From positions 11,646,722-11,710,721 of the forward strand of contig OZ037766.1 of the NCBI GenBank assembly GCA_964035545.1: 64,000 nucleotides of DNA, given 5' to 3'. Position 1 is the first letter of the stretch. Each line of letters begins with the position of its first letter. The position numbers and the translations under genes were made by a program. Source of the stretch: Bugula neritina. Taxonomy: Eukaryota > Animalia > Bryozoa. The notes beneath the pieces were generated by a model. The model ran no database searches. It worked only from the letters and a program-made list of their open reading frames with translations, and had not been told where the DNA came from. Positions 4,301 to 46,828 of this stretch are shown here, piece by piece.

Positions 4301-4522
4301 TCAGCGACCACCAATATTTAATAGTACTAATTAGTCTAGAAGTAACTTCCCAAAAAGTGCTCAAAAAATTGGCTTATTACACTTTACTAGGTGGCCACTT
4401 AAAAAAAATTGTTTCTAGATCAGAATTTTGTGCTGATTCTGAATCTACAAACTCTAGAATTTTATCTCTACCCAAACTCAAGTAATGGCAAAAAACAAAT
4501 CGACATCTTGGATGGGTGATAA

Positions 4523-4828
4523 TGTGGTGGTTCGTGGAACTACCAGCAGCACAACATGTAGGGTCGCGTAATTGACCCGGAACAATGGATAGCCAATTAG
4601 CGTAGTTGATAGTTAGCAGCAATTGTAGTTTCCCGCTGCTAACTCAGTCGAAGCTAGAGTGTGAAATAGATTAGATGTGTAACTTGTTAGAAATAATGTA
4701 TCGTGTTTTTATAATGTATAGTTGTGTATAAAATATACTCGTTCACTCGACTTAGCCTGGTGCAGTTCTATACTAGATAAATAGACTCTCTGGATAGCAT
4801 ATCAACCCTAAATCTGAAAATCTTAACA
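4523..4828 (+). repeat. 5' LTR of Gypsy element
   Basis: TGTGGTGG...TTAACA, direct repeat of 11723-12028; TATAAAA-like motif near 4727. Confidence 0.97.
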
Positions 4829-4829
4829 G

Positions 4830-4847
4830 TGGTGGCAGCGGTGGGAT
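4830..4847 (+). promoter_or_regulatory. Primer binding site complementary to the tRNA-Leu (AAG/TAG-type) 3' end
   Basis: TGGTGGCAGCGGTGGGAT is the reverse complement of ...ATCCCACCGCTGCCA-CCA and lies 1 nt after the LTR. Confidence 0.85.
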
Positions 4848-4859
4848 AGTGCATCCAAG

Positions 4860-5813
4860 ATGGAGACTGAAAATGCTGGAACTCAACCACCGGCAATCGA
4901 AGGTGAGCGTAGAGACAATGCTGTAGAGACAATGCCTGTTAACCATGTAGTAGAAGAGCGAAGGGTTCCGCGAGAACTAGCTGAAGACCGCTACAGGTTA
5001 AAGGCGCCCACCTTCACGGGTGAAGAGGAGGTGGAACAATTTATCCAAGAGTTTAGCGACGTAATGGACGTCGCTCAGTGGCCCCCTAGGGTGGCCTTGC
5101 TGAAGCTTAGAATGGCATTGATGGACAAAGCCAAGCCCTACGGGCTGGGTGTAGACATTGATAATATCTTTGCTTCTCTGCGGGCCCGCTTTGGCCTCTC
5201 TGCTACAGATGCCAGGGCCCGATTGCAGAGGTTGCGGCGTGATCCCCGCACCCCGCTGCGGGAGCATGCCGCCGCGGTCATGAAGCTGGCACAGATCGCG
5301 TACAGCGACTTGCCCCCAGTCAACCGCGAGAGGTACACCCTCGACGCTTTCATAGCATCTGTCGACGATCTGGGTCTCCACCACCAGTTTCTAGCTAGGG
5401 GAGTCACCACCGTTGAAGATGCTCTGACTGAGGGGGAAGCTTACCTCCTAGCTAATCAAATGCATAAAAGTCGCGGAAGCTCCCGCCAAGTGGAGATAGA
5501 CCGCGCAGACACGGCCGCGGGACAAGGGGAGGAAACCCCCGCCGCGGCTGCCGTGTCCCAGTTGGCGACGGCATCAAAAGTCACTCAACTGACGGACATG
5601 CTAGCCAAGCTGATAGCAACACTGACACCACAAAACCCAGTGAGTACCGCCCCTGAGCCCATGCGGCCATCGGCGCCGCCACAGGGAGAAACAGTCAGTT
5701 TTTGCTGGGAGTGCGGAAATCAAGGACATTTCCGCCGATATTGTCCCTTCCTAAATCAGGGGTTAAACTACCGCGGCCCGCAGATGTTCCCACCTTCCGC
5801 GGGCCGACGATGA
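4860..5813 (+). CDS. gag: Gag (capsid plus CCHC nucleocapsid knuckle)
   Basis: 317-aa ORF directly after the PBS; zinc knuckle CWECGNQGHFRRYC. Confidence 0.92.
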   Translation: METENAGTQPPAIEGERRDNAVETMPVNHVVEERRVPRELAEDRYRLKAPTFTGEEEVEQFIQEFSDVMDVAQWPPRVALLKLRMALMDKAKPYGLGVDIDNIFASLRARFGLSATDARARLQRLRRDPRTPLREHAAAVMKLAQIAYSDLPPVNRERYTLDAFIASVDDLGLHHQFLARGVTTVEDALTEGEAYLLANQMHKSRGSSRQVEIDRADTAAGQGEETPAAAAVSQLATASKVTQLTDMLAKLIATLTPQNPVSTAPEPMRPSAPPQGETVSFCWECGNQGHFRRYCPFLNQGLNYRGPQMFPPSAGRR

Positions 5814-8800
5814 AACCTCCAGGGAAGAAGAAACGCAGGTCACCCAGACGGGTACCGCGTACTGGCAACCAACAGTGGCAACAGCCACGACGGACCAGCA
5901 AGGGGCTTCGCCCCACAGCTGCCTTTTCTATGCCCCTTCACAACAGATTCACAGGGCTACAAGTCCAAGAATCTGGATGGGAGCCCACAAAGGTAGCTGA
6001 GAATCTAGCCTCGGCACCCCCGAGGCCTACCTATCACCGCCCCAAGAGACCTCCTTCGCGACCCAAAGCGAGGGAGGTACTCCCTGCGAGAGTAAGGCCT
6101 GAAGGGAGAGTTCAGGTGCAGCCCCATGGGAACAGCTATTTCTTGCCCGGTAAACTGGAAGGCAAAGCTGTTACTTTTCTCATTGATTCGGGCTGTACCA
6201 CAAACCTCTTAAGCCGCCAACTCTTCGACACCCTCAGTGCTAGGGTCAGGGGCGAGATGGAAGCATACGAAGGGGAATACGGCACCCTAGCTGACGGGTC
6301 GTGCCTTCCCTTCTATGGTATAATTGAGCTGACGGGACGAGTCCGCGATCAAACGATCCAAGAGACGTTCATCGTCAGTCAGCTCAAGGAGGATGCTATC
6401 CTCGGGATGCCGTTCCTTAAACGGCACGGATGTCACATAGATTTTAGCAGATCTGCAATGATGATGTCCGGGCGGGAACTCGCCTGCGTCGACAAGTTCG
6501 GCCGCCCTTTAGTGGGAGGTGTGCAAGTGGTACGCAACCGTACCATACCAGGCCGCTCCCGGGCTACCATTCACTGCAGGGTGAATAGTAGCCGGATCTC
6601 TGGACTCGGGGTGGTTGAAGGCGCGCACGAAAAGATCCAACTTGCCAGCAGTCTGAATCAGCTGACTGAGCAAGGGGAGATCTTAGTGCAGTGCATCAAC
6701 CCCTTCACCGAGCCTATCAAGCTCCCGGCTGGGTCGATGCTGGGCCGTTTTCACTCTGTTCAGGAGGGAGACGTAGGCCCGTCGCTGGATGATGCGACAG
6801 AGGCACCCCCTCAACACCCTATTCAGGGACGAGGGGCAGTCCCAACACATCTCCGAGAGTTATATGAAACAGCCAGTGGCGGCTGCGCGAGTAACAGGGA
6901 ACGCCAAGCTATGGCTAAGTTACTACGCGACTACGGTGATGTGTTCAGCAGCGGAGAGCATGACGTGGGACTGACTGGAATTGTCAGACACGAAATACCG
7001 CTGACTGCAGGGACAGTCCCTGTCCGGCAGCCCACGCGCAGGCTGGGGCCGGAGAAAGAGAAGGAGGTTAGCCGACAAGTACGGGATCTTCTGGACCGGG
7101 GACTGATAGAGCCCGCCCATAGTGCGTGGAGCTCGCCAGTCGTACTGGTCCGGAAGAAAGACGGCAGTTGGCGGTTCTGTGTGGACTACCGCAAACTCAA
7201 TAGCGTAACCATACAGGACGCCTACCCTCTACCTCGTATTGACGAGTCATTGGACGCCCTAGCCGGCAGCAAGTACTTCAGTACGTTAGACTTGCTAAGC
7301 GGCTATTGGCAAGTTCCTCTGAGTCCCGACGCCCAGGAGAAAGCGGCGTTTATCACACGGGACGGTTTGTGGAAGTGGAAGGTGCTGCCCTTCGGGTTAA
7401 CCTCCGCCCCAGCCACCTTCCAGAGGCTGATGGAACAAGTCCTTAGCGGACTCCATTGGAAGACACTGCTGGTCTACCTCGATGATGTCATCGTAATCTC
7501 TCCAGACTTCGAGACACATGTCAGTCGTCTGCAGGAGGTTTTCGAGAGACTCCGAGGTGCCGGTCTTAAGCTCAAACCTTCCAAGTGCGCTCTATTGCAG
7601 CCGGAGGTCAAGTACCTGGGGCACGTTGTCGGTCGAAACGGCGTGGCAACGGATCCCGAAAAGGTACGGGCAGTAGAAGACTGGGTCACCCCCCCAAGAC
7701 TTGACCGGACTCCGGGCTTTCTTGGGGCTGGTAGAGTATTACAGGCAATACATACCAGACTTTGCGGGCATAGCCCAGCCGTTAAACCGGCTCACCGCAA
7801 AGGGAGTGACGTGGCAGTGGACTCCAGTCGAACAAGAAGCGTTCGACCGCCTCAAGGGCTGCCTACTAACGGCGCCCATCTTGGCCTACCCAGACCCCAC
7901 TCTGGAGTACATCCTTGACACGGACGCCAGTGACCAGAATGTTGGCGCTGTGCTGTCACAAGTGCAGGAAGGCCGAGAGGTAGTAGTAGCCTACTACAGC
8001 AAGTCTCTCTCACCCGCTGAACGAAATTACTGCACTACCCGCAAGGAGCTGCTGGCAGTAATCAAGTCAGTGAAGCACTTCAGACCATACCTATATGGCA
8101 GGAAGTTCCGGCTGCGTACGGATCATGCCTCGCTGATCTGGTTGTGCAGGAGAGCAGAGCCCTCTAGTCAGGTCGCCCGGTGGCTCGAAATCCTAGCTGA
8201 ATTCTCATACCGGATCGAACATCGACCGGGCAAGAGACACAGCAATGCGGATGGGTTGAGTCGCCGACCTGACGGAGGTTGCAAACAGTGTCTCAACATC
8301 GAGAGGAGGGATGGAGGTCCCCCACGATGCGAGTTGGAGACGCTGGCTCATCACGGAGCATCATTTGACTGGGATCAAGGTCAACTCAGGCAGAGAGTTG
8401 ATGAGTCCCCGGAGGATGTACAAAACCTCCGCGCCAACCCTGTACTGGCCGGTAATGTTCGAGAGCTGAAGAAGCTCCAAGAAGAGCTGCCTGGAGTCGT
8501 GGCAGACATATACCGGGCCAAAAAGCAAGGGCGACGACCCAGCGAGGAACGCATACGACAGGGATGCGCCGAGTTCCGGCTATACTGTCAGCGTTGGGAC
8601 TCGCTGCGGATCGGGCAGGATGGGTTGCTAACCATCTCTCTAGCTGCCAGCGGCAGACACCCGGAAAGGAAGAGGGTAGTCTGCCCCACAGCCATCCGCC
8701 GTGAGTTGATTTGGGATACTCACAAGCAGGCCCACGCAGGGGTCAAGCGAGTGATATCCAAATTACGACTCCGGTGGTATTGGCCGCAGATGGAGCGTGA

Positions 8801-10334
8801 CGTCCGGCTCAGAGTCAAACAGTGTGAGATCTGCCAGGCCAGTAAGCATAGCCGCCCCCCTGGTGAAGCAGGACGGCGGAGGCTATATGCTGGTAGGCCC
8901 TGGCAAGTAGTCGCTGTAGACCTGGTCGGACCCATGCCCATGACCCCCAGAGGCAATAATTGGATCCTAGTACTAACCGACCACTTTACTAGGTGGGCGG
9001 ATGCTCTGGCGATCCCAGATGCATCAGCCCCAACAGTGGCCAGGGCACTAGACCAACATGTATTCTGTTATTTTGGGCTTCCCAAACAGATACACTCTGA
9101 TCAAGGCGCTCAATTCCAGTCCCAACTGATGAGCGACCTTTGCCACCTCTGGGGAGTAAATCAGAGCAGGACCACCCCCTACCACCCTCAAGGTAACGGG
9201 GTGGTGGAGCGCAACAACCGGATGCTAGGTGATGCACTCCGGAGTCTCCTCCTTGGACGAGGTCAAGAGGAATGGGATACGGTGTTGCCGCAAGTCATGC
9301 GTGCATACCGTAGCACCCCACACACCAGTACTGGTGAGACCCCAAACCTCTTGATGCTCGGGAGGGAGACTCGTGTCCCTGACCATCTCACCTATCACGT
9401 TCCAGAGCAGGATAACTCAGTCCATGAGTATGCCAGTGAACTAGTGGAACGGATGAAGGCCGCACACGAGATACTGCGTCAACAGCAGTGGAAGGTGCGG
9501 CACGAGGATTCCGATGAACCCCCTCTCTACCAAAGGGGAGATAAGGTGTGGATGGTCAATTACCGTAGGCGCCGCGGACAGGCTGATAAGCTGAAGCCTA
9601 AGTTCGTAGGCCCCTACGTGGTCGTCGAGGCTATGCCCAATCATACGTACAAGATCGAGCGCTCAGGACAGGTATCTATCCAGAATGAGTCTCGCTTGAA
9701 ACCGTATTGGGCTAGCCCCGGCGGAGTGGGAGAAGCCCCCCCGTTGTTAGAGCCCAGAAGGCAGACAACAACGCGCGGGCGACGGCGGCATGGACCTGAA
9801 TACGAAGTGGTCATACCGCGGGAAGAAAACTTGGTGAGAGAGGAGCGGCAGCTTCTACCAACAGAAGCGTATCCGCCACCGCCAAGTCTAATTCCATCAC
9901 TTCCAGAAACCGAGCCGGTTCCGGAAGTGCAAACCCCCACGGAGGGAGGGGCTCCATCCGGAGAACAAGAAAAGGTGACTGCTGACGGTGAAGTAGAGAC
10001 GCCATTAGAGGCCCCTACTAACGAACCGGCAAGCGTGTCACCCCCCCTAGAAAGGGGACAGCGTACGAGGCAACCCCCCGCATACTTAAAGGACTTCGTA
10101 TGTGACTGCGTTAAAAGCAGCACACATGAAAGTCTAGGGGAAAACCGTACGAGAAAAGAATCGAGCAAATGTGGGAGTTGTCAACACTACGGAAATATCA
10201 ACTTTTGTATCGGCGGAAATAGAAACAAAATTCATCCGCCGGGTGCACAAAGTCTTAATCACGCACCCCAACCACGTTGCTCGATCTTTTCATACGCTGA
10301 TGCAGTCAAGAGTAGACGTGTTTCTAAGCAGTAG
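5702..10334 (+). CDS. pol: Pol (protease, RT, RNase H, integrase with GPY/F), split by a single extra C at 7689-7695
   Basis: LIDSGC protease; YLDD RT; DTDASD RNase H; HHCC and D,D35E integrase (DLVGP, SDQG, ERNN); GPY motif. ORFs 5702-7918 and 7701-10334 join as WVTPQDLTGLRAFLG if C7 is read as C6. Confidence 0.93.
5762..5826 (+). promoter_or_regulatory. Predicted -1 ribosomal frameshift signal (G UUA AAC plus stem-loop/pseudoknot)
   Basis: GTTAAAC at 5762-5768 is phased with gag codons (TTA AAC), and pol is in the -1 frame. 5-nt spacer, then an 8-bp GC stem CGGCCCGC (5774-5781) / GCGGGCCG (5799-5806). Loop TTCCC could pair with GGGAA at 5822-5826. Confidence 0.7.
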
Positions 10335-10358
10335 TTCAAACCATTTCACATATTCAGT

Positions 10359-11435
10359 ATGTCTTACGACAACAGATCGTGGGGTGAGTTAACTATATCT
10401 TAATACGAAACTAGATTGCATCGTTCAGCTCTGACTCACTGAGTCAATCGAGCTGGAGATAGGTTAGTGAAATACCGTAGTAAGAACTCAGTTTGACTTA
10501 GAGATTTTTATAATCTCATTGCAATACGGTTCTATCTGACTATTCACTATCGTTAATCTCTACGAGGTAACTGAATTGGGAGTTGCCAAGCTGTCTAAGC
10601 TGACAACACAGCAGTGTACTGTACTAACACTGTTGAAACTTTTTCAGATTACACTCGACCCACTACAACCAGGGTACGGGATAGAACACTTCCCGCTCCG
10701 TATCCGGAAGACTATGCTAGTGGTGACCGGCCTGAGCCACTACGCCGCCGTTGGCGGTGGGTGTCTCCACAAACCGAGGAAGAAATAGAAACAGCCTGGG
10801 GGTCCAGAGGACGGACGAGATGCCAGATATGTGGTGAAGATTGCGCCTCTCACCGCTCCCTTAAACTACACGTCAATGCTCATCTCCTACTGACCTTCTG
10901 CCCCTGCGGGTACAATGATGTGTATCCCTACCCCGTCACCAGACACAGAGCGGCGGGCTGTTTCCCTGGAGAAAACTATGTGGTCGACGCTAAGCTGTAC
11001 CCGGAGTTCCTCACACATATACGACCTCTGGTAAAGAAGGCCATGCTATTAGCCGTTCTATCCTCGGGGTTCCAACGTGTGTTAGACAACGCCCGCCAAC
11101 AATCCCCGTTGGTGTCTGACCGCCCTCAGATTACATACACCCCCGAGGAAACTACATATCCAGAAGAAGGAGAGATCTCCCCTACCCCGGCGAAGAGACG
11201 GACCAGGTCCCCCAGTCCACCCTTACGCCGCAGACGGACACCGTCCCCCGACCCGGTACGACTAGCCACAGTAGAAGAACGCCTCCTACGATTACAAGAA
11301 GAGTTCACCCAGCCGGCACCAGACCTACTTAACACTACAACAGGACTCTTCCAGCTCAAGGGATCCGTATGCCGTATGAAACGGAAACTGCGTACATGCC
11401 AAGCCAAGCACCGGCGTGCCCAACAAGGACTCTAG
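10359..11435 (+). CDS. Gypsy ORF3: spliced zinc-finger / basic-SP / coiled-coil accessory protein (predicted exons 10359-10383 and 10648-11435, ~270 aa)
   Basis: Open frame 10614-11435 has no ATG ahead of the zinc fingers. It has a TACTAAC branch point (10622-10628) and a TTTTCAG acceptor (10647). The upstream ATG...TGG G|GTGAGT donor is in the matching phase 1. Motifs: C-x2-C-x12-H-x3-H and C-x-C-x12-H-x4-C. Confidence 0.7.
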
Positions 11436-11710
11436 TTAGACTACTCGGAGTACTCCAACTCTGCCTCTCGGGAGAAGCCCAGATGTCGTGTAAATGTTTG
11501 ACTGCTTAACAGGTTATCCCCTGTCTAACACCACAGCTAGCTAGTATTCCTCGTCTATCTACAGCTGGCCAATTGTATGCAACGGATCGTTATAATGACT
11601 CTGTCTATTATTATGTCTCTTCCTGTATATCATGTATTATTTTGTCCACTGATGTATGCAAGTACTATTGAATGTTTTTTTATATATATATCAGAAAGAT
11701 GGCTTTCTGC

Positions 11711-11722
11711 TGGTGGGGGCGG
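11711..11722 (+). promoter_or_regulatory. Polypurine tract of Gypsy element
   Basis: G-rich TGGTGGGGGCGG immediately before the 3' LTR. Confidence 0.65.
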
Positions 11723-12028
11723 TGTGGTGGTTCGTGGAACTACCAGCAGCACAACATGTAGGGTCGCGTAATTGACCCGGAACAATGGATAGCCAATTAG
11801 CGTAGTTGATAGTTAGCAGCGATTGTAGTTTCCCGCTGCTAACTCAGTCGAAGCTAGAGTGTGAAATAGATTAGATGTGTAACTTGTTAGAAATAATGTA
11901 TCGTGTTTTTATAATGTATAGTTGTGTATAAAATATACTCGTTCACTCGACTTAGCCTGGTGCAGTTCTATACTAGATAAATAGACTCTCTGGATAGCAT
12001 ATCAACCCTAAATCTGAAAATCTTAACA
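11723..12028 (+). repeat. 3' LTR of Gypsy element
   Basis: Direct repeat of 4523-4828 at an offset of exactly 7200; followed by TSD ATAA. Confidence 0.97.
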
Positions 12029-12599
12029 ATAAAAAGAAATGTGGATTGTGCAAAATAGTATCCAATTTTATCAAGCTATCTTGAAGAAAAAATATTTGCT
12101 GAAATACCAAAAATAATTGCCTCTTACTTAGAATTCTATGCTGATACAGAATTTAAAGACTGCAAGACGGTATTTCAAATTAAAACCAAGTTGTTTATAT
12201 AAACATATATGTTTGTTATGAATCGACATATTGCATGCAGCATAAGCATGCAGAATAATTGTATGACCAAGCTATTTATACAAAAATAAAAACAAAGTCA
12301 TGCTGATGTGCGAAAAAACTATATTTATAAAATCATAGCACAAAATAAATGTTAAAATGAATAAATATTGAAATCTTTTGAGCACAGTCCAAGTGAATCA
12401 TTTGCTAGTCTGTCAGTAGCCAGTAAACATCTGCAAAAATCAACAAGATTCTGTAAAATTATTTAGAGAAACAGAAGCATAAGAGATGATCAAAATCAAA
12501 TTGGTTGCAGCAAAATATATAGCAAATGTCTAAAAATAGTGCTTTATTATGAAAAAGTATTCTCGTCACCATTGTCACTGCCATCAGTCTCATCAGCTT

Positions 12600-18525: not shown

Positions 18526-21500
18526 TGTTTTGTGTTGTTTTGTGTTATTGTTTCAGCTATCGTGAAAAAGAGAGAACGTGCTCAAGTGAGTTGATTAACG
18601 GAAGAGGCCGAAGCCGTGATTTATTACCACAATATATAATACAAGATAATACTGAAATTATTACAAAATAAGTGAGACAATTGATTATTATGATTATGCA
18701 CAAAAATAGTAAATTAATAAAATAACATAACAAATAAATGTTTACATAAATACCGAACATCTCCCACAGAATAGAAAGAGGCTAGTTAGGTACGAATGTT
18801 TTAAGAGGGCACATAGTCTGCCATCCAACTAGGGGGCTTCCGTTCTCTGGTTGAACGCCGTGGGTTGTCGCTATGATTGGCGCTCTCGGTGGTTTCAACC
18901 TGGGTGCTACTAGTATTTTGCTTAAGATCCTTTGGTGTCTCAGGACTCGCTGGTTCCGTGACAAGCGGTCTGATATCTCGCCGGTTTCTCCGAAAGAGAT
19001 TGTTGTTGAGCTGTACGGCATAGGCTCTGCTAGTCAATTGTTTGTTAATTTGTGCCTCCTGCTATTTTCTCCGGTGCTGACTCCAGTCCCGAACCAAAAC
19101 TGGTTGCCCTTTTTTCAGCACTGCCAAATCTCTAGCAGCGTCATTACATCTCTGCTGTAGTTTTTCATTGTGGCTCTGCTTTTCCCACCAACCTTGGTTG
19201 TCCTCTGTTTTTGGCTTGACTTGTGGTAGAACTGACCTGGTGGGCCTTCCAATAAGTTGCTGAATTGGGCTGGCCGTCAGGCCTTTTTTGGTGGTATTGA
19301 GATGTTCCAGCAAAGCAAGTTCGGGCTCTTCACATCTGCGGAGTATGCGCTTGACTATCTTCACAGCAGACTCTGCCTTCCCATTAGATTGAGGATGATA
19401 TGGAGAGCTGGTGGTGTGTCTGAAATTCCATGATTAGCTAAAAGTAGAAAACTGGTGTGAAGTAAACTGTGGTCCGTTGTCAGTGTGAACCTGTCTGGGT
19501 ATTCCCAGGCGTCCAAAACAGTGTTTTATAGAGTTGATTACAGTCTCTGCTGTTTGGTTGCCCAGTCGGTCGTATTTAAGGTAGTCAGTCGTATAGCCAA
19601 CAATAGTAATGTAATGAGTGTGGTTGTATTCAAACAGGTCGATTCCTACTTTTGTCCAGGGTTGTTGGGGAACTGTGTGGAGTAAAAGTGTTTCCTTCTG
19701 TTGCCGGGGAGCATCCAGTTGACATTGTCGACAGCTAGCAATATTGTTTTTAATGTCATTGGTGATGCCAAGCCAAAACACTCTGTGGCAGGCACGTCTT
19801 AGTGTGGAGTTAATTTCATTATGGCCAGTGTGAAGTAGTTGGAGAAACTTTCTCTGGAGTGCCTTTGGAATAATGGCTCTTAGCCCTTTGTAAACAATGC
19901 CATTGTCAATAGATAGTTCATCCTGAAAGTGTTCAAACTTGTCATGAGTTGTGCAGTTGGCAATGTTCCAGTCATGTTTAATAAGGTTTGTCAGTGTCAT
20001 AAGTTCATTATCCTGTGCAGTAGCAGTCCTGATGTTGTTAATTAAGCGTCACAAACAGGAGCATCATTATTTTGAGAGTCAACATGAAAAATATGTTCTG
20101 GTAGTTGTTGATAGTTGAGAGAGTCAAAGTATGAGTCTCTTGAAAGTAAGTCAGCCGTGATTTGTTCAGCACTCTTTTGCCAAGTTACCTTAATGTTTGG
20201 GTATTTTTGTAAGTGAAGAAGCATAGCCTGCAACCTCCGAGATGCCTTATGAATGGATTTCCTGAAAATAGATATCAGGGGTTTGTGGTCAGTTTGGATA
20301 GTGACAGCATGGTGACCAAAGATATGCTGGTCAAAGCGTTCAGTGCCAAACACTATGGCAAGGCACTCAAGCTCTAGTGGTACATAGTTCTGTTCCGATT
20401 TTGTTCAACTGCGAGATGCGTATGCTACAGGCTTGCCTCCTTGCATGAGTGTTGCACCCACACCAGCATTTGAAGCGTCAGTTTGTATAGTTACTGGTTT
20501 GTTGCAGTCAAAGTATTGTAGAGTTTCCAAGTCAGTAAAGTCTTCAGTCTATTAAAAGCGTTCATTTGGTCGTCAATCCAGTGAAAGTCGAGCATTGTCT
20601 TGTGTCAGTAAACGTCGTAATGGTTCAGATTCCGATGCTAGATTGCTAATAAATTTTGACATGTAGGTGATGTGACCAAGGAACCGTTTTACTCCTTGTG
20701 GAGATGAAGGAGGTTTCATCATAAGAATGGCATTTACTTTGTTAGGATCTGGTTTAAGTCCATTAGTTGTCAGTATGTGTCCAATGTAAGGTAGTTCGTC
20801 CTGAAGGAAACGGGATTTTTTCTTGTTCGGTCTCAGTCCTGTCTGTCGAGCACGTTTGAAGAGCGCTTCAAGGTTGCTATCATGCTCTTTCCTTGTCCTT
20901 CCAAAAATTGGGATGTCATCTGCAACTATGGTGATGCCATCAAGACCAGCAAGATTTTCCGTGAGCCTTCTCTGAAACTCCTCCGGCGCTGATGCAATTC
21001 CGAAGAGTAGCCTTAGGTACTTGTATTTCCCTATGGGAGTCCAGAAAGTTGTCAAGTCTGTCGATTCTTCAGCTAGAGGAATTTGATAAAAACCTTCTTT
21101 TGCGTCACACAAGGAGAAAAACTTGGCGCCGTTTAGTTATGGCAAAACATCTTCCAATGTTGGCATGACGGCGTGGTTTCGTTTAATTGCTTGATTAAGA
21201 TTTTGCGGATCTATCCAAATGCGTATTTTTCCATTAGGCTTGCGTACTGGCTGTAGATGGCTTATCCAGTCTGTAGGTGCTTCTACCTTGGTGATAATTT
21301 GGCGTTGTTCTAGTTCAAGAATAGTCTTGATGAGATCTGATTTCATCGACAAGGACACCTTCTGCGGTCGGACTTGCACTGGTACAGCTTCAGGTCTCAG
21401 CTCTATCCTATATTCCTGTTCAAATTTTCCAAGTCCAGTAAATATGTCATCAAAGTCAGTCGGTAAAGTCTGAAGGTCTGGGTCAGTAGTGGCAAAGTTT

Positions 21501-23014
21501 ACATTCTCGCTTTTGGTGCTGGGCATTTGTAATAAATCCAGGTGCAAACATGATTTCCATGACAGCAAGCTGTGTTGGGTGGTTTCCACAACTAGGGATT
21601 TTAATGTAGTGTAACGTCCTTGCTTGTTTAGTATCCGTATACGTGTCCACCCTAATGGTGCACACTTGCTCTGGTCGTATAAAGTTAGTACAGTATCAGT
21701 CGTTGTAAGTTTCGGTCTACCTAGTCAACAGTATTCAAAGTATTGCATGATGCACCAGTGTCAAGTTGGAATTCAATGTCATAAATAGTATCAGCCTGCT
21801 TAGCAGTGAGCGTCGCTAATAGTTCACGATCCCGTATTGTAGTGGGGATAGTACTTACATTTTGAGAGTCACTGAAGAGTAATTCCAGGTGACTTTATTG
21901 GCTGTTTCGGTTGAGTCGCGATAATGATGCATGCGTGACCTGCAGTACTTGGCAAAGTGGTTAAACTTCTTGCAATGATTGCACTGTTTCCCATATGCTG
22001 GGCATGCTCGAGGTGGGTGGTTGCCGCCACAGTTTCCACACCTAGAAGCACCAACTGGTTTTCTGACGTTGGGCTGAAAGCGAGTGTGTGAAAGCTGTCC
22101 TCTGTGTTTATCAGTGTTACGAGTGTCATCAGAGTGATATTGATGAGTCGGAGGTCTATGTTTTACCAAGTTCACTTGTTTGAGTCCACAAGTGTTATCA
22201 TTAGTCATAGTCTTGTAGTCAATAGCTGATGCTTCTTCCTGTCTACAGAGCTCAATTGCTTTGTCAAAGTCAGAGTCAGTCAAGTCAAACAGTTTCTATC
22301 TAATCTTGTCACTTTCAATCCCCAGTATCAGTGCTTGTAGTATCAGTCGTTTGTATATATCTTTTAAGTCACATAGTCCTGCAATGGTATGTAGTTCAGT
22401 CAAAAATTCGTCAATAGTTCTATTCTCATGCTTACAAGTCAGTAGTGAGTGAGTCTTAGCCACTAAGTTTCTTCTTGGTTTGCAGTAGTCATCAAATTGT
22501 GTCACAACTTTGTCGTAGTCCGTCTTGTCATCGTTGTCAGTCCAGTTGAAAGATTCGTATATTTGGTTGCCTCGGCGACCGATAGTTCTAAATAGGTATG
22601 CAGTTTTCACTTTGCCTTCGGCTGTATCTTTCGATGTGGCAGTTAAAAAAAGTTCGAAGTCACGTTTAAAAATCGTCCACTCCTCAAGTAGATTCGGTCC
22701 TTCTACTAATGGTTTTGGCGCTAGTAATTGCTCCATGTTGTTTCAGTGTAATAATAATAACGATTAGACTCGGGGCACTATGTTTTGTGTTGTTTTGTGT
22801 TATTGTTTCAGCTATCATGAAAAAGAAAGAACATGCTCAAGTTAGTTGATTAACGGAAGAGGCCGAAGCCGTGATTTATTACTACAATATATAATACAAG
22901 ATAATACTGAAATTATTACAAAATAAGTGAGACAATTGATTATTATGATTATGCACAAAAATAGTAAATTAATAAAATAACATTGCAAATAAATGTTTAC
23001 ATAAATACCGAAAA
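18526..23014 (-). mobile_element. Decayed Ty3/Gypsy (Mag-like) LTR retrotransposon
   Basis: 234-bp LTRs at 18526-18759 and 22781-23014 with about 8 mismatches. Approximate 5-bp TSD AATTC. Degenerate PBS TAGTGCCCCG. Double knuckle CGNCGGNH..CPAYGKQCNHCKKFNHFAKYC, RT VADD, RNase H QTDAS/TDHKPL, integrase TDNGPQF. Many stops and frameshifts. Confidence 0.92.
18801..22736 (-). pseudogene. Disrupted gag-pol of the Mag-like element
   Basis: Fragmented ORFs: 22296-22736 and 21855-22283 (gag), 21137-21589 and 20573-21112 (RT), 20042-20353 (RNase H), 19434-20000, 19062-19364 and 18801-19037 (integrase and tail RSTRERKPPSWMADYV). Confidence 0.9.
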
Positions 23015-29700: not shown

Positions 29701-32700
29701 CATACAACTCTCAAAAAGTCAGTAGATGATAGCTAAGATATATACGGATATTTTGATAAGTACTGCTTAAATGAAGCGTGTCAGAGATTCTTTAACTGAG
29801 TGCCAAAGTTTCATTTGTCTCCACCTGCAAATGATAAATATAACTAAGCATATATGTTTTATTAGAGCCATGCATGCTAACTTGAAAAGTAGCAAGAATA
29901 AATCCAGTAGCTGTGTTTAGTCTGTAAAACATGGTATTTTTTTAGATTATTTTAGATTATCTCCTATTACTGAGAAATTAGTTTATCAGAGAAAAATGTG
30001 TGATATTTAGAATGTGTCATAGTGCCAGTTGTTACAGCTGATCAGATGGATACACCACAGCCACCTCCTCGGCCTAAAAAGCAAATCAGCCACACCTCTT
30101 CCAATCTGTCAGGAAGCTATATGGAGTTTGATGAGTCATCATCTGAAAAAAAAGGATTCCGGAAAACTCCATCACTTCCTTCACCGGGCAGTGAGGAAAG
30201 TTATCAGGATCATTCAGCCAACAAAACTGGTCTTCGTTCTCCAACCACCAACAATCTTCCCAAATATCTTCATGTCGAAAGGTAGGCTTTAGAAACATTA
30301 CTTCGTTTTGAAATAAACTGTGTGCTACATCATTACAAACCTAATGTATAACATGCACTTATGTTATGCTTATTTTTAGTTGTTATAACTAGAGATCTCT
30401 AGCTGGTAATATCATCTTCCCATGCTTTATCCGCAAAGTTTTAAATTGAGCCAATGGTGGTAGCAAATGCACTGTATATACTCACGGCTCTTCTGTGCAC
30501 TCTAAAAGTTTTAGGGTCTTATGCATGCAGACTCATGATAATTGGTGAAGGTGTTTTTAATCTAGTTTTAGTTTATTTGGGTATTTTCAATATTTGGTAT
30601 GCAGCTCTGTAGTTTCACTGAGGACCCTAATTAGTCATTATGAGCTGAGGAACTTACTAATTTAGCTTCATAATTCGGAAAATAATTGCTACCGTGATAC
30701 CAATTTGTTTTAAATGCTTTGCAATGTAAAAGCTGTTTTTTTCTAAAAAGGGCTGATCTTGTTAACAATATTTTCATTTTTAAAGTGTTTTTTTAATTGC
30801 AGAGGCTTGAAAGTTGTGCAAAAGTTTTATAAACTTCACTTCTTTTTCTTTAAAAGGATTTTTAAAACTGCAAAGCAATTGAGGAAAACACTTGTTGAAG
30901 GATCTTTGAATGTTTTTAATGGAAAGGCATAAATTGTTCATATTTTAGTTATTTTCTTTACTAATAATTTGCAGTGGCTTCTGCAATAAACATTCTCTAT
31001 GGGACCAAAAATATTTGCGTGTCATTGGAATTAGTGTAGAGATGTGTTTTGTCACATGTTTGTGTGAAAAAGCCTTTTTGTAAAAAAATTTCTTTTAATT
31101 TATGCCATCGTGAAAAATTTTGAACGTTTCCATTTCAAGCTACTTCAGTATTTCTGGCCAATCACCGCCATCTCTCGTGACTGTTGTCTGTAAATAGCAC
31201 AAGATTTGTATGAGTTTGCAAGTGTTTGGCATAAATGGTTGCTTAATAGACTGTATATTCCTCTATATAGCTAATTACCTTAGTCTGTGTTACAAATTAC
31301 CTGTACTATTTGAATTCACACAGGTGACAGTTATTGAGATGCTGATTTCTATAGAATTGCTTCAATACTATTGTTTACAACTACTCAATTTTGTGATTTT
31401 GCACTGGACTTTAAGCTTAGTATCATCTTTTTGCTCCTATTTCTAAGTATTGCTAGTGCTTATATTTGGTTATATGTTGCTATTATTATATGTGTAATAT
31501 TTGTGGTATGTATTTCAGTTCTCCTGCCATGGATGTCCTCGCTGATCTCAAAGAGAAGCAGAGACAGCTAAGAGACACTTGTGTACCCGCATCAATGCCG
31601 AGAAACCCTGCCCCGGGTAAACCTGTACCGCCGGCAAACAAGCCTCCACCATCAGCAAACAAACCTCCCCTGCTGGCAAGCAAACCCATCCTGCCGGTTA
31701 AACCCAGAATGTTGGAGAAAATATATTGGAATGGCTCCAAGGAGGATGCGACCAGGTTGGTTTCATGTCATACTTTCTATCAGTATGTTTCTATTGTGTC
31801 ACTCAACCAATAGGAACACAGTGTTGGTCATATGATTGTTAGTCTGTGCTAGTTCCAATGATGAACCCTCATGTTTCTATTGGTTATTTCTTTCAAGTTT
31901 CAGTGTTCTATAAATGGCACTTCTAATAGACCAGACCTTTAACTTATTTTCAAATATATGTAATGGGTGTTTCCATTTGAAGCATAAACAAGCACTACGG
32001 ATTTAGATTAAACCTGTAGTATAGTTGTCTCCCCACGATTACCAATATTTCCTAAGTCATTCAATTGTTAGAGTTATCTGTTCCCATCAGCAGTGTAAAC
32101 AGCCTTTCTATTCATAGCCAACTCTACCACTGACTCTACCACCAGTTTCAGCTAATTAGGGTGTCATTTGAATGGAACTGCTCCTATGATTAATATCTGT
32201 GTTATTTAATGTTTAGGGTTATCAGAGAATCAAATAAAGGAACCTTTCTGATTCGTTGGGGAAGCACAGGTAATCAAAAGGTAAGCTAGCTTACATGGAC
32301 TGTTTTTCAACAATCGACCTTTTTTACATGTTCTTTACTTTGATTTGAATTTGATATTGCAAGAGCTATGGCCACGTGACTTGCCTGGGGAAAGAAAGCA
32401 ATATAAGCTATGTAAGAGCTATTAAGGTTGTTTCTGTAGTTACGTAATGGTGAAACAGGTTCGACTTGGTTAACAACTGGTCTTGATAGCACTTGTATTC
32501 ATTGAACTATAACCATGTTGAACTATATAGTTTCAGTTCAGTGCTTGTATTGTCGTTGTTTGCTTTCTATAAAGATGAGAAGAGTGATAACATATTGACA
32601 AGCAATAGAATATCTTTATAGACAAGTACGAAGGTACCACTTAAGGGCTACTGAACATGATAGTACTTTACTTTCCTAAAGTTGTTATGGTATAATTGAT

Positions 32701-33879
32701 TTTCCAAAATACATGAGCATCAATGGTTTCACAGTATTGCTTGGCATTTCTAATTGAAGTGTTGTATTGCTAGAGCATAAATTATGTGTATTGCTTTGAG
32801 TTTTATGAAATCATGATTGAAATGTCTTTTTTTAGGTGTTGGTTGTGTCTGATGGTAGGGGAGAATCTCATTCGTTAAAGATTAACGAGTTTTCTAACGT
32901 AAGTTGTATTATCTGTATGTATACTATATTATACTATAAATTAGCATCCATTGGGGTGCAAATGTAAAAGAGCAGATTTTAGCTGTATTTAAATGAAATT
33001 GCTGACAAGCTTTGATTTCTTGAAACTCTAGCAAGGTAGATACCCCTAGTATGGAATTTAATTCTGGCCAGCAAGTTTTTAATGCGTATTTACCTGTGTG
33101 TTTTCTAGAAATTGTGTTAATGTGTCTGAACTGTCTATAAAATGATCATATATTTACTCCAGTAATAAGTTGTTAGTTGCTTGTGCTTATTATTATTTCA
33201 AAAATAATCATTCACCATCAGTAAATTAAATTTCAGGTATTCAAATAGAAATTTCATAACTATTCTGGCAATTTGCCAACAAAGTAATACATTTAAATTT
33301 ATGTACAAGACACCTTTTTTATTCAAACTTTAAGGCAGCTTCTGTTGCTTTTAGAATTTTAAAGCATGTTTGAAAAAAGTTGAAATTATTTTGTTGAAAT
33401 TATAGTGCTGTCATTGTGTTTTAATATTTATGTTACTGAAAACTAGGGATTTGGTAGTACCAGTTTATTTAAGTATAGCTAGTCAACATTATAACTTTTA
33501 CCCAAAAACTATATCTTCAAAGTTTTATCTAAGCAATGATTGTATCGGTGTACTCTACATAACTGGTAGAGATCAAGCGTAGGCTAGTAAAACTGGAGTT
33601 ATCTTATTCGAGCACTTGTAAATATTATACTCTCAGCTTTATATATTCCTTATTATGTTGGCAGCATACATGATAAATGCATGTATTGTAATGGGTTTTT
33701 ATTACTTTTAGGGGCAAATGGGTCTTAAAAATGAAGCTTTGTCTTCAGATTTAGAGAAGTTCAGCTCAGTAGATGCACTGGTGAAGTTCTACAAAGAAAC
33801 CCCCATCAACTTGCGTAGTGGTGCAATTGAGATTAAGCTCAAGACTCCACATCCACTCTGTGCTCAAACCTTAGATTAG
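23718..33879 (+). CDS. SH3BP2: SH3 domain-binding protein 2 (3BP2)-like adaptor: PH - proline-rich - SH2, ~488 aa. Exons 23718-23811, 24561-24665, 24928-25030, 25367-25508, 26164-26231, 27980-28089, 29447-29488, 30011-30281, 31519-31755, 32217-32280, 32836-32898, 33712-33879
   Basis: All junctions are GT-AG with consistent phases. PH domain: VLHQGWLRKK...WNMFYVLVTEKSIYYFKNETASSFVGKFSLFGYN...WMQSIRKAL, which resembles 3BP2 ([22 protein letters not shown]). Also EDYEV and PPPRPKK motifs. SH2: GTFLIR...KVLVVSD...FSSVDALVKFYK. Confidence 0.82.
26790..27968. repeat. 19-bp minisatellite (CACATGTTGTATTACTACC) interrupted by a MITE
   Basis: About 3 copies at 26790-26858 and about 20 copies at 27573-27968. 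Confidence 0.9.
26859..27572. mobile_element. Non-autonomous DNA transposon (PIF/Harbinger-like MITE) inserted in the minisatellite
   Basis: TIR CACACTACAGTCGAAACG (26867-26884) versus CGTTTTGACTGTAGTGTG (27547-27564); it splits the 19-bp array. Confidence 0.65.
28139..28500. repeat. 36-bp pyrimidine-rich minisatellite (~10 copies)
   Basis: Tandem unit CATTCTCTAATCCCCCTTCCATCCACTCCCTGATCA. Confidence 0.92.
28695..28902. repeat. 21-bp minisatellite (~10 copies)
   Basis: Unit CTATACATGTACAATCTAAGA and variants. Confidence 0.9.
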
Positions 33880-34908
33880 AAACTCTTGTTCAGGAGTGAA
33901 GACTTCATATTTATTCATATACAAACCATGTATTTAAACCAATGCATTTAAATTCCTCTGTATCGTGATAACAGAGAGGGTGTGTTGGTGGAGCCCTTCC
34001 TGACAATTTGCTCAGAGGCTTTTTAGTTTTGATACCTTTTCTCATGAATATGGCCTAAGCTGGTTCTGTATGACACACCAGCTGTGGACTCGAATTTGCA
34101 GTCGTCTGGACAAATAAATGGTTTGGGTTATTGATAACATGTCTGAGGTGTGGTAAGACAGTATTTTATTAAAATTAGCTAGTGGTGTCTTCAGCCCATA
34201 GTATTATTTCAACTATATATTTTGGTATGCAGTAATAAATTTATACTCTTTTTGTCACTTATGTTTCTAGCAAACATTCTATGCAGCTTTGAAAGTTCTT
34301 GACAATCAAATAAATCAAATCATGTTCTTTTCTAATAGTTTTTAATCATCAGCACACAAATTTATCTTGTACTGCCTTTTAATTTTTGTTACTTTTTATA
34401 AAATATTCCTTTTTGGTACTTTATTTTACTGACTGTATATTTTATTTAAAGTTATAAAATTCAAATACAGGGTATAGATGTACTATAAAATAATTTTGTA
34501 AACTGTTTCGTCTCAATATTCCATAAGCTTTTAGTGGCTGTCATAATAGCTCAAAAAATGGGACTTGTAGAGTTTTATTTATATATGATGGATATGTTTG
34601 TGTTGACATGTAAAGTCTCAGAAGGATGAAAGAAAATTTGCTTGTATTGAAACTAAAATGAAACTATAAGCAAATCTTTTACCATTTTCGTTGAAAAATT
34701 AACAACAGATCTGGAAAAATTTCAAACTAGCTAATTTTAGTTGCTCAAAAAGTGCTAGTCTTTGCTTAATCAACTTGAATTGTAATATTGCTTGACAGCT
34801 AAATCAAACACTCCAAAACCTCTAGGTAATAATAGAGCATTATTTGTGTGAGTAGGCATGTAGGAGCTCACATTTGTATCTGTATGCTATTAAATTGCTT
34901 TACTTTGC

Positions 34909-35093
34909 TTGAAGTATGGGTTGAGGATAAGGATTCTGAAAATCTTAAGGTTGGAACAAATTTTTTTACATAAAGAGATGCATTAACTCTCATGGAAGGT
35001 TGGCTTACTAGAAACAGAATGTATCTTTTTATGTAAAAACTTTTGTCCTCTTCTTGTGATTTTCAGAATCCTTATCTTCAACCCATTCTTCAA
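34909..35093. mobile_element. ~185-bp palindromic (hairpin) MITE-like element; paralogous copy at ~43808-43988
   Basis: Outer arms TTGAAGTATGGGTTGAGGATAAGGATTCTGAAAATC and GATTTTCAGAATCCTTATCTTCAACCCATTCTTCAA; inner arms TTTTTACATAAAGAGAT and ATCTTTTTATGTAAAAA. Confidence 0.7.
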
Positions 35094-36000
35094 ACCAAGA
35101 GACATAACTCCGACACAAGAAATACAGCTATGCATAATTTTACATTAATGAAACAGAGTAATGAATACATGTGACTTTTAAGCCAAGATTTTGTATTCAT
35201 CACTTCAACTAAGTAGCATATTTTAAATTTATTGTGCAACATATGAGTATTTCAATCATGCGTAAACTTGATTCATGTGACTGAAACAACCTAATTCTAT
35301 GATTAATTACATCAATTATCCTGTCATAAATATATGAGGAAGTAAATGTTAAGGGGAAAAGTTTTATTTTACTTAGGTACATTGAAATACTATACTTAGA
35401 TTACGCCTATGTGCTAGGGTGACACTTTTTCCTCTATAAACTATACTAATCAGTAGTAAAAGCATGTTTTATACTTGCACATTATTTATATAAAATATCT
35501 CATTTATCTACCTACATATTGGCACTTGGCTAACCAATTCTTGAAAATATGCAAATATTGTCAGGAAATGATATTTTTGTCTGGGTTGAGTAAATCAGAT
35601 TTTTTGTTGAATACTTGAAGGCTAGTCATATTCCGACACTAGCTGCAGTTGATAACTAAAACTAAACTTTGTCTTCATGGTGAAGATGAAATTGTTGTTC
35701 CTCGTCTTAACCTGGCAACAGCTTAAAACATGGAAGTTAATCAACAAAACGGGCACACTAATAAGCAAAATTATATAAAACTATTTTGTAGTTTAATCGC
35801 CAGTGATTCCTACAACTTCATAAAAAGCAAGAAAATATTTTTCTAAGTTGAGAAATAATATTACACAACTTGAACGTTACTATGTCAGCATCTTCATAAT
35901 AACATGATTGTACAATGGGAGATACCAGTACCAGTTGTTATGAATAATTGTAGGAAACCGAATGGAAAGGTTTCTTGTTGCAATACATAAATGAATAGAA

Positions 36001-36012
36001 GGGAATTTTTCC
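36001..36012. promoter_or_regulatory. Rel/NF-kB-like site upstream of IFITM-like gene 1 (conserved at 44936-44947 upstream of gene 3)
   Basis: GGGAATTTTTCC about 100 bp upstream of the ATG in both paralogs. Confidence 0.35.
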
Positions 36013-36108
36013 ACTACTGGTTGATTCAATATAAAAAAGTGAAGTGATTCTTTGTTCTTCATTTTGAGGTGTGACGCCGAATCTATCAGACAACGAACTT
36101 CACACAGG

Positions 36109-37338
<1,230 letters not shown>

Positions 37339-37511
37339 TGTTATTTTGTTTATAGTAATTGCTCTATAAGGTATAGTTTTTATACAATAAGTTTAGCTAT
37401 GACAAAATTGTTAATATTTCCATTGAGCTGTGATGCCTTTCTAATTTTTTAACTTGCACTATTATACTGCTATATTTATATCCTATCTCATATATTATAT
37501 ATATATATATA

Positions 37512-37574
<63 letters not shown>

Positions 37575-40147
37575 ATCCAATCAATTGTATTTTATGATCA
37601 AACAGGTTCTTTTGCTTTAGGATTTTTTCCTTGAACAACAATTTTCTGCCACTACTCACTTGCAAAACAAGTTGCAAAATAAATTATGAAAACAATTTTA
37701 TATGATGATCATTTAAGTTTACTTTATTTGTAACAAGGTTACAATCATTCTAGCGAACTTTTCAGTGATTTTTAATTTTATATAGCAATATTTAATTACA
37801 TACACAGTTTACAAATACCGCACACCCACAGTCAGAAATATTCGGTTTATATATACGTGGACAATTTATAGAAAATTAGGGCTTTATTCTGAAGAAATGT
37901 GATAATCACCAGTTTGCATGGAGGGAATAGAATGAGCAAGAAGAATATCAACACAATTAAACTGTGTTATGACCTATTATAATATTTCTAAGCACTATAA
38001 GATGTGTACAAGCAGTACACCTACCCTCTCTATGCTACAACAAATATCAGCTCTGCATTGCTGACAGACAACGAAATACACAATCTAGAAATTGATGATT
38101 CAGCTGTATTCTTTCAAAAAGATCACTTTACTAAGCTGTTTCCCCTCCTTCCACAGGTCACTTACTTTCAGCAATACTGAAAAAATAGCTAAATTGAAAT
38201 ATATAGTATTACATCAATGGACAATACACAACAAACAGCTGACTATGAAATAAGTAAGCCTCTCCACAACAGAATACTTGCTCATTAGCAACAAACGGAA
38301 TAAAGTATTAAATACTGTTATATCTGACTAGTGGAGCAGTTTTTCTGCCCGGGCAGACAACTCTATTTTGTCAGGTGTTCGTCTGCATGCATTGCTAATC
38401 TAACCCAGTGTTTCTACTGTGCTACAGCTCCAGTGGTGCACAATCAGCAGTTGGATCTTATATGCATTATTAACAAACAGTAATGAACAATGAAAACCAA
38501 CAAAGCAGGAATAACTATATAAAATCATCACATATATGACAAAAACTAACAAATGACATTTGAAAAACAATTATAAACGCACTGCCAGTATTCAATAACA
38601 ACACAAACTAAATTCACTGTAGCAGCTAGTGTACTCCTCTGTACTTATACTCACATGTGTTGCTATTGTCCACTGCAGTTGTTACTTTTCTGTGTATACT
38701 GTCTCTGGATGTGCTGCTATTTGGCTTCTCTCTGTTGCTATACTTTATATCTCCCTCCATTACTGCTATAATACATACTACTGTTATACATACATACTGT
38801 TTCCACTTTATATAGATTATATAAAGTAGAAACAGAGTGATCTCCCTTCACTGCTATACATACTACTTGTTATGAGTTCCACTTTGTTTTTGAAGCAAAC
38901 TTGTCTCCCCAGTAATCTGCCACAGCTTTATAAACATATAAATAGTACAGCTTCACACTTCCTCCACATTATTGACAACAGGTTATGTAGCTTATATGTG
39001 TCTCAACTTACTGAAGAAGAGTTGATATACATTTGCAAACAGGCTTAGTTAACTATATCTCTTATATATTGACCTAAAATATATCCTTAAAGGTGTTGTT
39101 TATTCCTAAAAACATTCAACTTATAGATCTACAATTAAGACAAAAATATTTTTGTTAGACAAAGTATAGTACATGCATGTAGCTGTGGCGTCGGTGTTAT
39201 GTGGGTTAGTAGTATTTTATTAGTCTCCACTGATACCATACATGAAAGCTATGTTGGTAAAAAGACATGTGTAAAAAAATAGAATATGTTGTAAAGTTAC
39301 TTTAAAAACAGCTATAATAATATATTATAATGAAATGCAGATGTTCAAAATTAAACTGTAGAGCCAGCAATAAAATTCTACAAAGAATAATATGTATTGC
39401 TTGATTGGCTCTACATATATATGTATACACTGTATATATAACCACTGTGCTAGGTACTGGCTCCAACAACCTACCACAGCTAGGCCAAATCTCTAACAAA
39501 TGACTTAATATTCAGCTTACAAGCACGTATACTTGGCTAAAACACTGTTTACAAAGTGCATATATATTTTATAACATACACTTGTAACTCAACACAAACT
39601 CAAAGCCAAACAAAGGTAAAAGATTAATGCTAATATAAAATATTACAAAATATTTGTTTAATGACTTGTAAATTACACATAGCTTGCTAACAACATTTCT
39701 AGTCTGCTCTGAACTCTAAATTATAAACTAATAATATTTATTGCCAACTTTCATTGCATGCTATAATTAGCTGCTGCAACATACAACTCAACAACTGAGC
39801 TAGGCTTTAAAGTTTAACATTTGAATTGGAAACATTATCAGCAGGCAATCATGCAAATCAATTAAAGACTTGTTTATACAAAATTCATCATAAAACAAAA
39901 TTGTTTGTACCTGCAATCCTCAAACAGTCTGTAGATAATATCTAAGATATATAATATATATTTAATATGACGTAAATGAAGTGTGTCGAGGAAATTTTCA
40001 AATAATTTAGTATGAGTGATATCTAAATACTTTATATGGCTAGTGAACTGGTTAAGTGAGATAAACAAGGTAAGTGCTAACATGTTGAAGTACTTATAAG
40101 GTGTGGTAATTATACGTCTGCATTAACTGTATTAACCTTCTCTTAGC

Positions 40148-41606: not shown

Positions 41607-42057
41607 TTTTCATTATTTGGTTTATTAACTTGTTTATAGCGTTTATTTTGGCTACCAATTGTTCAAGCAACAAATTTTAGTTATATGTGTTTTGCAAGAT
41701 TAACAATATTTTTCATCAATAATTTATCATGTATGCATACAATATTATATTATATTATATTATATATATATATAAAATGGTGTATAGTTAACCACTAAAA
41801 AGAGCTCAATGCAGAGCAGAGCAAGGTGAATAAAAGTAATGAACGATAAAATTTGATTTAGAACACTATTACTAATAGTTTCATGTGCATTGTATATACA
41901 CAATCTTCAGATAAAATGTTAAGATGTGTTATAACTTGTTACAGATTTCATTCCAACTGTTTATATTATTAGCAAATAGTTTTATATATTAACAATATCA
42001 TAAGTACATATATTACCTGAGAAAGAAGTTTTATTTAACAACAATTTGTACTTGTAG

Positions 42058-42149
42058 GTAACTCTGTTGGTGCAGCACAGTCTCCCAGATCAGCCCTCAA
42101 TTTAAACATAGCAGCCACAGTTTTAGGCATATTGATTATAACATATTGA
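42058..42149 (+). pseudogene. Orphan, truncated IFITM-like terminal exon (gene-1 type)
   Basis: Intact acceptor CTTGTAG, then GNSVGAAQSPRSALNLNIAATVLGILIITY*; cut by the duplication breakpoint at ~42150. Confidence 0.75.
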
Positions 42150-42620
42150 ATAATATTTTCTATCAATATGTTTCTATTGTGTCACTCAACCAATAGGAAC
42201 ACAGTGTTGTTTAAATAATTGTTAGTCTGTGCTATAGTTCCAATGATGAACCCTCGGTTTTTTTCTATTGGTTATTTCTTTCAAGTTTCAGTCTACTATA
42301 AATGGCCCTTCTAATAGACCAGACCTTTGACTTATCTTCAAATATATGTAATGGGTGTTTCCATTTGAAGCGTAAACAAGCACTACGGATTTAGATTGAA
42401 CCTGTAGTATAATTGTCTCCCCACGATTACTAATCCTTCCTCAAACACTCAATTGCAGTTAGGGTTATCTGTTCCCATCAGCAGTGCAAACAGCCTTTCT
42501 ACTCACAGCCAACTCTACCACTGACTCTACCACCAACTCTACCATCATTTCAAGCTAATTAGGGTGTCATTTGAATTAAAGTGTTCATATGATTTATAAT
42601 CTGTGTTGTTTAATTTTTAG

Positions 42621-45043: not shown

Positions 45044-46828
<1,785 letters not shown>

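Follow-up and report, generated by a model that had tools for sequence, protein, structure and literature searches.

Rex and Tas/Bel1 are regulators that enveloped retroviruses produce from spliced RNAs, and they control the fate or amount of the full-length RNA. Rev is also made from a spliced RNA and controls the fate of the full-length RNA (PMC10309623). The closest described system in the Ty3/Gypsy group is CERV of the Caenorhabditis elegans element Cer1, a protein of 517 amino acids that is encoded by five exons, carries H, M (with a C4 loop) and G-protein-like domains and, according to its description, has no homologues outside nematodes (PMC10309623). CERV is a spliced product with the N-terminus of Gag, and it is needed for the export of unspliced genomic RNA (PMC10309623).

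There are also descriptions of additional frames at the place where an env gene would be expected. [quoted passage not shown] As far as the passages available describe them, these frames are fusogen-like, GDSL esterase, DEDDy exonuclease, transmembrane or antisense, unlike the ORF3 discussed here (PMC5408684, PMC7264820). The word 'zinc' is absent from the main text of the rotifer paper (PMC5408684), and the passages available from two other papers contain no such gene (PMC8556966, PMC2774666). Our full-text literature search found no Gypsy ORF3 with the finger pair described below; an entry in Repbase, Dfam or GyDB is possible. The ORF3 protein family did not appear in that search; the design of a regulator spliced from gag is known from Cer1.

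The window analysed here, a stretch of 64,000 nucleotides from the bryozoan Bugula neritina, contains a complete Gypsy element (Table 1). Its two LTRs are identical at 305 of 306 positions and are flanked by an ATAA target-site duplication, which agrees with the near-identity remarked on when the sequence was read by itself. The insertion is young. Other characteristics of Ty3/Gypsy elements are present, including the paired TG...CA termini, a polypurine tract and a primer-binding site, which we take to be of the tRNA-Leu type. The primer-binding motif recurs, with one variable base, in two distant loci (L001 and L002). The gene order is gag followed by protease, RT, RNase H, then integrase, as in Ty3/Gypsy, with pol frameshifted here into two frames (5657-7918 and 7677-10334) that break between RT and RNase H. 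Because pol is split in this way, the window copy is probably not autonomous. The gag stop codon overlaps an ATG of the pol frame (ATGA, 5810-5813), and pol is in the -1 frame relative to gag. Expression of pol from this overlap would involve either a frameshift or a stop-restart mechanism.

Table 1. Coordinates of the Gypsy element and of its predicted third gene within the window
Feature	Position	Strand	Remarks
5' LTR	4523..4828	+	306 bp, TG...CA, ATAA target-site duplication directly 5'
Primer-binding site	4830..4847	+	
gag	4860..5813	+	317 codons; CCHC knuckle at the C-terminus, matched weakly by Pfam
Predicted ORF3 coding exon 1	4860..4902	+	first 14 gag codons and one further base, phase 1
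Predicted splice donor AG|GTGAGC	4901..4908	+	
Predicted intron	4903..10647	+	5745 nt; includes the whole of pol and almost the whole of gag
pol	5657..10334	+	protease, RT, RNase H, integrase
Predicted branch point TACTAAC and acceptor TTTTCAG	10622..10647	+	phase 1 with ORF3
ORF3 coding exon 2	10648..11435	+	predicted spliced product of 276 aa
Conserved 133-residue domain	10719..11117	+	W-x-S-x-x-T helix, C2H2 finger, C2HC finger, V-D strand, helices
Basic SP-rich tract	11193..11249	+	subfamily-specific
C-terminal long helix	11250..11432	+	coiled-coil-like, basic end
Polypurine tract	11711..11722	+	
3' LTR	11723..12028	+	1 mismatch versus 5' LTR, ATAA directly 3'

Several other features are present in the window. 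On the minus strand (18526-23012) lies another Gypsy element, decayed and different in kind, with terminal repeats that are 97% identical and with gag-like, RT and integrase fragments that contain stops. Repeat units spaced about 4-5 kb apart and 84-97% alike, with 8-nt microsatellite blocks, extend from 32190 to 51233 and include a 170-nt inverted repeat (45721-46165). Host exons of a gene with an IgGFc-binding domain are found on the plus strand at 57645-58655 (Pfam E 5e-46) and 62910-63332, and together with the AT-rich background they indicate that the DNA is from an animal.

Located between pol and the 3' LTR, the ORF3 frame extends from stop to stop over 278 codons (10599-11435). When the interval 10335-11722 was base-shuffled 2000 times, a frame of this length never arose (mean longest 106, maximum 231). 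The long uninterrupted frame that the sequence-only reading noticed in the env position stands. Its proposed gene start at 10359 does not, because this is the ATG of a separate 14-codon frame that ends in a stop. The sole in-frame ATGs are at 11043 and 11376, both located 3' of the fingers, and thus no ATG precedes the fingers, as had been pointed out. The G+C content steps from 38% to 56% at the putative splice acceptor. The first finger is found where it had been placed (10821-10883), but by the Pfam model it is not canonical, as it scores 13.5 bits against a cut-off of 25.2. The second finger, C-x-C-x12-H-x4-C, is present at 10899-10961, and the heptad-like helix near the C-terminus was likewise correctly located (11256-11390). 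The basic SP-rich tract also lies where it was reported, but it is conserved in only 3 of 63 close relatives. Hydropathy gives no indication of a signal peptide or membrane segment, in keeping with the earlier view that the product is not an envelope. By this hydropathy measure, the peak 19-residue value is 1.16 for ORF3 and the mean for Gag residues 1-14 is -0.89, while the 19-residue value reaches at least 1.9 in 2 and at least 1.6 in 6 of the 63 relatives.

The motifs of the putative branch point (10622-10628) and of the acceptor ending at 10647 were both read correctly from the sequence. TACTAAC by itself is common, with 4 copies on the plus strand of the element and 12 in the window on both strands; the combination of TACTAAC and TTTYAG spaced by 8-30 nt is unique within the window. 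TTTTCAG occurs only once on the plus strand of the element, and so does the donor motif AGGTRAG, which places the predicted exon end at 4902. Both donor and acceptor are in phase 1, and therefore joining the first 14 residues of Gag to ORF3 would preserve the frame and yield a product of 276 residues. The codons at the donor read E-G-E, a motif kept in 47 of the 62 Gag relatives that have an intact N-terminus among 120 listed matches of 130. At the other end of the predicted intron, similarity among ORF3 relatives starts at the acceptor. There are 22 relatives (of 63) that read through this site as [FL]-[SL]-[DG], with Ser in 19 and Leu in 3, and the other 41 start further down. We infer that the read-through residues are always compatible with YAG.

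A natural representative of the Gag14-ORF3 join exists in a sister family, wherein protein P0026 changes from Gag to ORF3 at the predicted residue. Its first 14 residues match the Gag N-terminus of P0118 at 14 of 14 positions, and the next is the first residue of the ORF3 exon. Agreement with this start at 11 or more of 14 positions is seen in 22 of the 120 Gag matches listed. P0026 is the only protein with the join among 188 screened members of the ORF3 family, the next best match being 50%. The contig that encodes P0026 is 5320 bp long, which is less than the 5745-nt intron, and therefore the join is contiguous in that record; it would represent either a transcript or a re-inserted spliced copy. 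Because spliced RNA would keep the primer site, the polypurine tract and the LTR ends, it could give rise to a 1761-bp mini-element. No run recorded as RNA is among those listed for 10300-11700. Contigs from one run of unrecorded kind, which contains about half the words of this interval, cover 30 of 30 bins of 4400-12200; the predicted joint is absent among the 15 joints listed (there are 43 more), and this is evidence neither way. The in-phase donor, which the sequence-only reading did not name, and the joined protein P0026 strengthen the original proposal that ORF3 is expressed through the 10647 acceptor. Thus, ORF3 is in all probability translated from an RNA in which gag codon 14 is spliced to this site.

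There are 63 close relatives of ORF3 at 44-99% identity among 1085 candidates from a protein search, and none carries a source name. We aligned 42 of these and dropped the two nearest for counting purposes, leaving 40 rows. Each of the eight zinc ligands is kept in 35-40 of these rows. The C-terminal helix is the most conserved part, with 72% identity to the window, compared with 19-30% in the linkers. Median pairwise identity to the window is 60% for the domain plus helix versus 24% for the linkers, and this difference is supported by Fisher tests (p<0.001) in 38 of 40 pairs, which are not independent of each other due to shared ancestry. The basic end of the C-terminal helix is present in 41 of 63 close relatives, and a basic tract is found in 6 of 18 distant tails. 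For the window copy, 33 of the 40 differences listed (159 more exist) are coding, and ORF3 holds two synonymous and one non-synonymous change, too few for dN/dS. Pattern scans for ORF3 in metagenome and viral contigs gave 597 and 95 matches, respectively, with no confirmed locus, and an integrase scan of the viral contigs found none. The number of relatives, the near-invariant ligands and the free linkers uphold the idea of a conserved non-env third gene, and judging from these sequence patterns ORF3 is almost certainly a gene under selection.

A profile search of 1.84 billion representatives recovered 116 clusters at E <=0.001, including 62 at <=1e-10. The distant members share a core of residues about 45-170 that consists, in order, of the W-x-S-x-x-T helix, C-x2-C-x12-H-x3-H, F-C-x-C-G, the third His, a final ligand that is Cys or His, the V-D strand and helices. 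Counted over 92 aligned rows, the successive ligands are retained 86, 88, 89, 87, 92, 91, 86 and 74 times. The Pfam zf-C2H2 cut-off is reached by none of 41 distant relatives, and that of zf-C2H2_4 is passed by one. The structural check suggested by the sequence-only reading was productive for this region, since AlphaFold2 with the family alignment models residues 41-173 as one compact domain of 133 residues (pLDDT 94.7, pTM 0.87). The full-length model is poor (pLDDT 47.5), and the domain model was used for fold searches. Foldseek returned no match at E 0.001 from PDB or BFVD, and VIA gave no match at Z >=5 among 48161 chains. The best VIA match is Kaiso (Z 3.7, rmsd 3.0, 57 residues aligned), which covers the finger part only, and ESM Atlas yields unnamed clusters and generic C2H2 clusters. 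Thus, the domain model has no clear match of any kind. Such blanks do not prove a new fold. We regard the domain as uncatalogued in the sense that, by sequence comparison, it appears to lack a curated family in Pfam terms.

The first finger resembles those of Kruppel-type arrays such as SALL and ZBTB in its C-x2-C-x12-H-x3-H spacing, although the match is weak (best E 9e-6 over 23 profile positions). Unlike these arrays, the second finger has the form C-x-C-x12-H-x3-5-C, the linker between the fingers is hydrophobic rather than TGEKP, and in the model both fingers are packed with flanking helices. With helix positions numbered in what we presume to be the usual manner, finger 1 has Arg or Lys at position 2 in 75 of 92 rows and at position 5 in 77, and Leu, Val or Ile at position 6 in 73. 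The basic positions 2 and 5, the hydrophobic position 6 and the lack of TGEKP fit binding to a nucleic acid backbone or to RNA better than the reading of bases. Neither the Pfam zf-C2H2 cut-off nor the TGEKP linker, two marks of a classical DNA-binding C2H2 array, is found. These sequence features weaken the view that the two fingers form a classical DNA-reading array.

The likeness to CERV lies in the overall design. In a Gypsy element, ORF3 would be an accessory protein that is not an envelope, arises from spliced RNA (here predicted) and has the N-terminus of Gag, a cysteine-rich module and a helical segment for oligomerisation (PMC10309623). Unlike CERV, as far as its published description in the passages available allows comparison, ORF3 is predicted to have 276 aa from two exons, is located behind pol and carries a C2H2 + C2HC domain (PMC10309623). 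Its cysteine ligands are therefore of the C2H2/C2HC type and do not form the C4 loop of CERV. The predicted origin from spliced RNA is shared with Rev, Rex and Tas/Bel1, but the element has no envelope. Candidates for a Rev-like basic motif are the SP-rich tract, the basic helix end and the conserved basic face of finger 1, and the first two have the limited distributions given above. According to the sequence-only reading, this Gypsy element would be 'complex', its third gene being a non-env regulator expressed by splicing. The gene itself is supported, and CERV of Cer1 is a precedent for the idea (PMC10309623).

An integrase scan found seven loci. In two of them (L001 and L002) the domain occupies its own frame behind pol, with domain scores of 46 and 41 bits and with integrases 54-55% identical to that of the window. 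Four of the other five end inside the integrase or within about 430 nt of it, and the fifth (L006) has no domain match in about 1.3 kb behind a decayed integrase. ORF3 is broken in both L001 and L002, and the pol of L002 is also broken. In L001 (1-1353 and 7336-7400), 55 common bases behind pol are followed by two diverging paths. One leads to a zinc-finger ORF3 with an N-terminus rich in Arg, Ser and His, and the other is missing about 1.25 kb including ORF3, while its gag and pol frames, which lie between two LTRs, are open. This tandem layout may be an assembly artefact.

The domain also occurs in other protein contexts. P0307 is a single frame of 1460 residues comprising RNase H, an integrase that is 50% identical to that of the window over 727 columns, a low-complexity linker of 380 residues, the ORF3 domain and the terminal helix. 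A search for long fusions (971-2770 aa) was blank, which carries no weight because P0307 exists. In addition, four of 20 distant proteins looked up belong to clusters that contain named bryozoan gene models. These clusters (P0200, P0247, P0296 and P0306) hold uncharacterised models from Watersipora subatra and Bugula neritina, each carrying one or two domain copies (XP_067940964.1, XP_067944745.1, KAF6040922.1 and KAF6040923.1), and the two Bugula neritina genes have adjacent locus tags. In an unrooted tree of 77 domain rows (136 columns, with near-duplicates and most close relatives excluded), the six bryozoan domains are spread over three positions, requiring three changes, and they form one clade in none of 200 bootstrap trees. 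This scatter argues against one recent capture, and the unrooted tree does not give its direction.

ORF3 is a real accessory gene that, from its sequence, is very likely spliced and that encodes an uncatalogued domain, and its product is probably a nuclear regulator of the element. The leading possibility, to which we assign slightly less than an even chance by analogy with CERV and Rev, is that the protein exports or protects the unspliced RNA of the element. Strong splice sites would make a 1.5-kb spliced RNA the default product, and with such sites around gag and pol the retroelement would face the problem that its unspliced RNA must leave the nucleus. Perhaps the zinc-finger domain binds intron-containing RNA through the basic helix face while the C-terminal helix drives oligomerisation. 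Once enough ORF3 protein is present, the full-length RNA used for Gag, Pol and packaging would exit the nucleus. The basic face of finger 1 and the hydrophobic linker are consistent with this function, as is the layout shared with CERV, a spliced product with the N-terminus of Gag that is needed for genomic RNA export (PMC10309623). However, the joined form comes from one record at the protein level, the cysteine pattern is unlike the C4 loop, and there is no conserved arginine-rich tract, given the rarity of basic tracts among close relatives and distant tails. An L001 path with open gag and pol but no ORF3 also counts against an export function.

Another difficulty for RNA export is that the nearest sequence and structure matches, all weak, are DNA-binding C2H2 transcription factors. 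The same spliced gene might thus encode a transactivator or anti-silencing factor that binds DNA or chromatin, forms dimers by means of its C-terminal helix and has the LTR as its target, for which Tas/Bel1 and VANC provide models. C2H2-type fingers, a long amphipathic helix whose end is basic, best matches to DNA-bound SALL, ZBTB33 and ZBTB24 fingers, and bryozoan gene models with one or two domain copies all speak for this alternative. Yet there are two fingers only, they lack both TGEKP and a position 6 suited to base reading, and tandem finger arrays go unmatched over the length of the model by Foldseek (TM-score at most about 0.3) and VIA. We consider this function possible but doubtful. 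The fusion in P0307 points to an integration role instead. Just as a chromodomain ends chromovirus integrases, the ORF3 protein might assist the integration complex by guiding it to chromatin or tethering it there, while being a separate spliced protein in most families. The gene always lies directly behind integrase where its context is known (the window, L001 and L002), but pol stops before ORF3 in the same three cases, the single fusion could reflect a lost stop codon, and the short Gag leader offers no obvious route into the particle. An integration role therefore seems improbable. Even more so is a passenger, either a captured host zinc-finger gene or a chance open frame, with no role in transposition, which we think very unlikely. 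The named host models in two bryozoans, the L001 path without ORF3 and the broken ORF3s in L001 and L002 would fit a passenger, although L002 also has a broken pol. Against a passenger, the conservation is patterned on ligands, all 63 close matches are without a source name, the same slot is occupied in elements with 50-55% integrase identity, and the bryozoan domains are dispersed in the tree.

A reading of 10335-10647 as a response element was set aside. Its fold has a z of -3.4, but across the element a z of -2.5 or lower is seen in 23 of 62 windows. The predicted intron region (5003-10702) contains 22 of these 23 and folds better than shuffled sequence along almost its whole length, as judged against shuffles that ignore codon structure. 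The strongest folding is at 5843-6022 (z -5.5), just behind the gag/pol junction, and such folding is not seen in the LTRs or in most of the ORF3 exon. A hairpin predicted at 10605-10637 has the branch point partly in its loop and partly in its stem, and this could temper splicing. An inverted repeat, TGACTCA-C-TGAGTCA, is located about 190 nt upstream of this hairpin.

A broader scenario, which we regard as rather unlikely as a whole, is that an invertebrate Gypsy lineage without env became 'complex' in the manner of retroviruses. Its own two-finger domain would switch, in the manner of Rev, from spliced to genomic RNA and back, independent of CERV and Rev. Spliced RNA that keeps the primer site, the polypurine tract and both LTR ends would be re-copied into the genome, and the resulting 1.76-kb mini-element would spread the regulator (P0026). 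Hosts, bryozoans among them, would have recruited the domain more than once. For very few LTR retrotransposons without env is there an answer to how intron-containing RNA leaves the nucleus or escapes germ-line silencing, and in the papers we found Cer1 alone has a dedicated protein for this. The defined junction, the modelled domain, the more than 100 clusters, the integrase fusion and the host gene models permit a direct test in a second, unrelated system. By this finding, elements of this type are mis-annotated as plain gag-pol.
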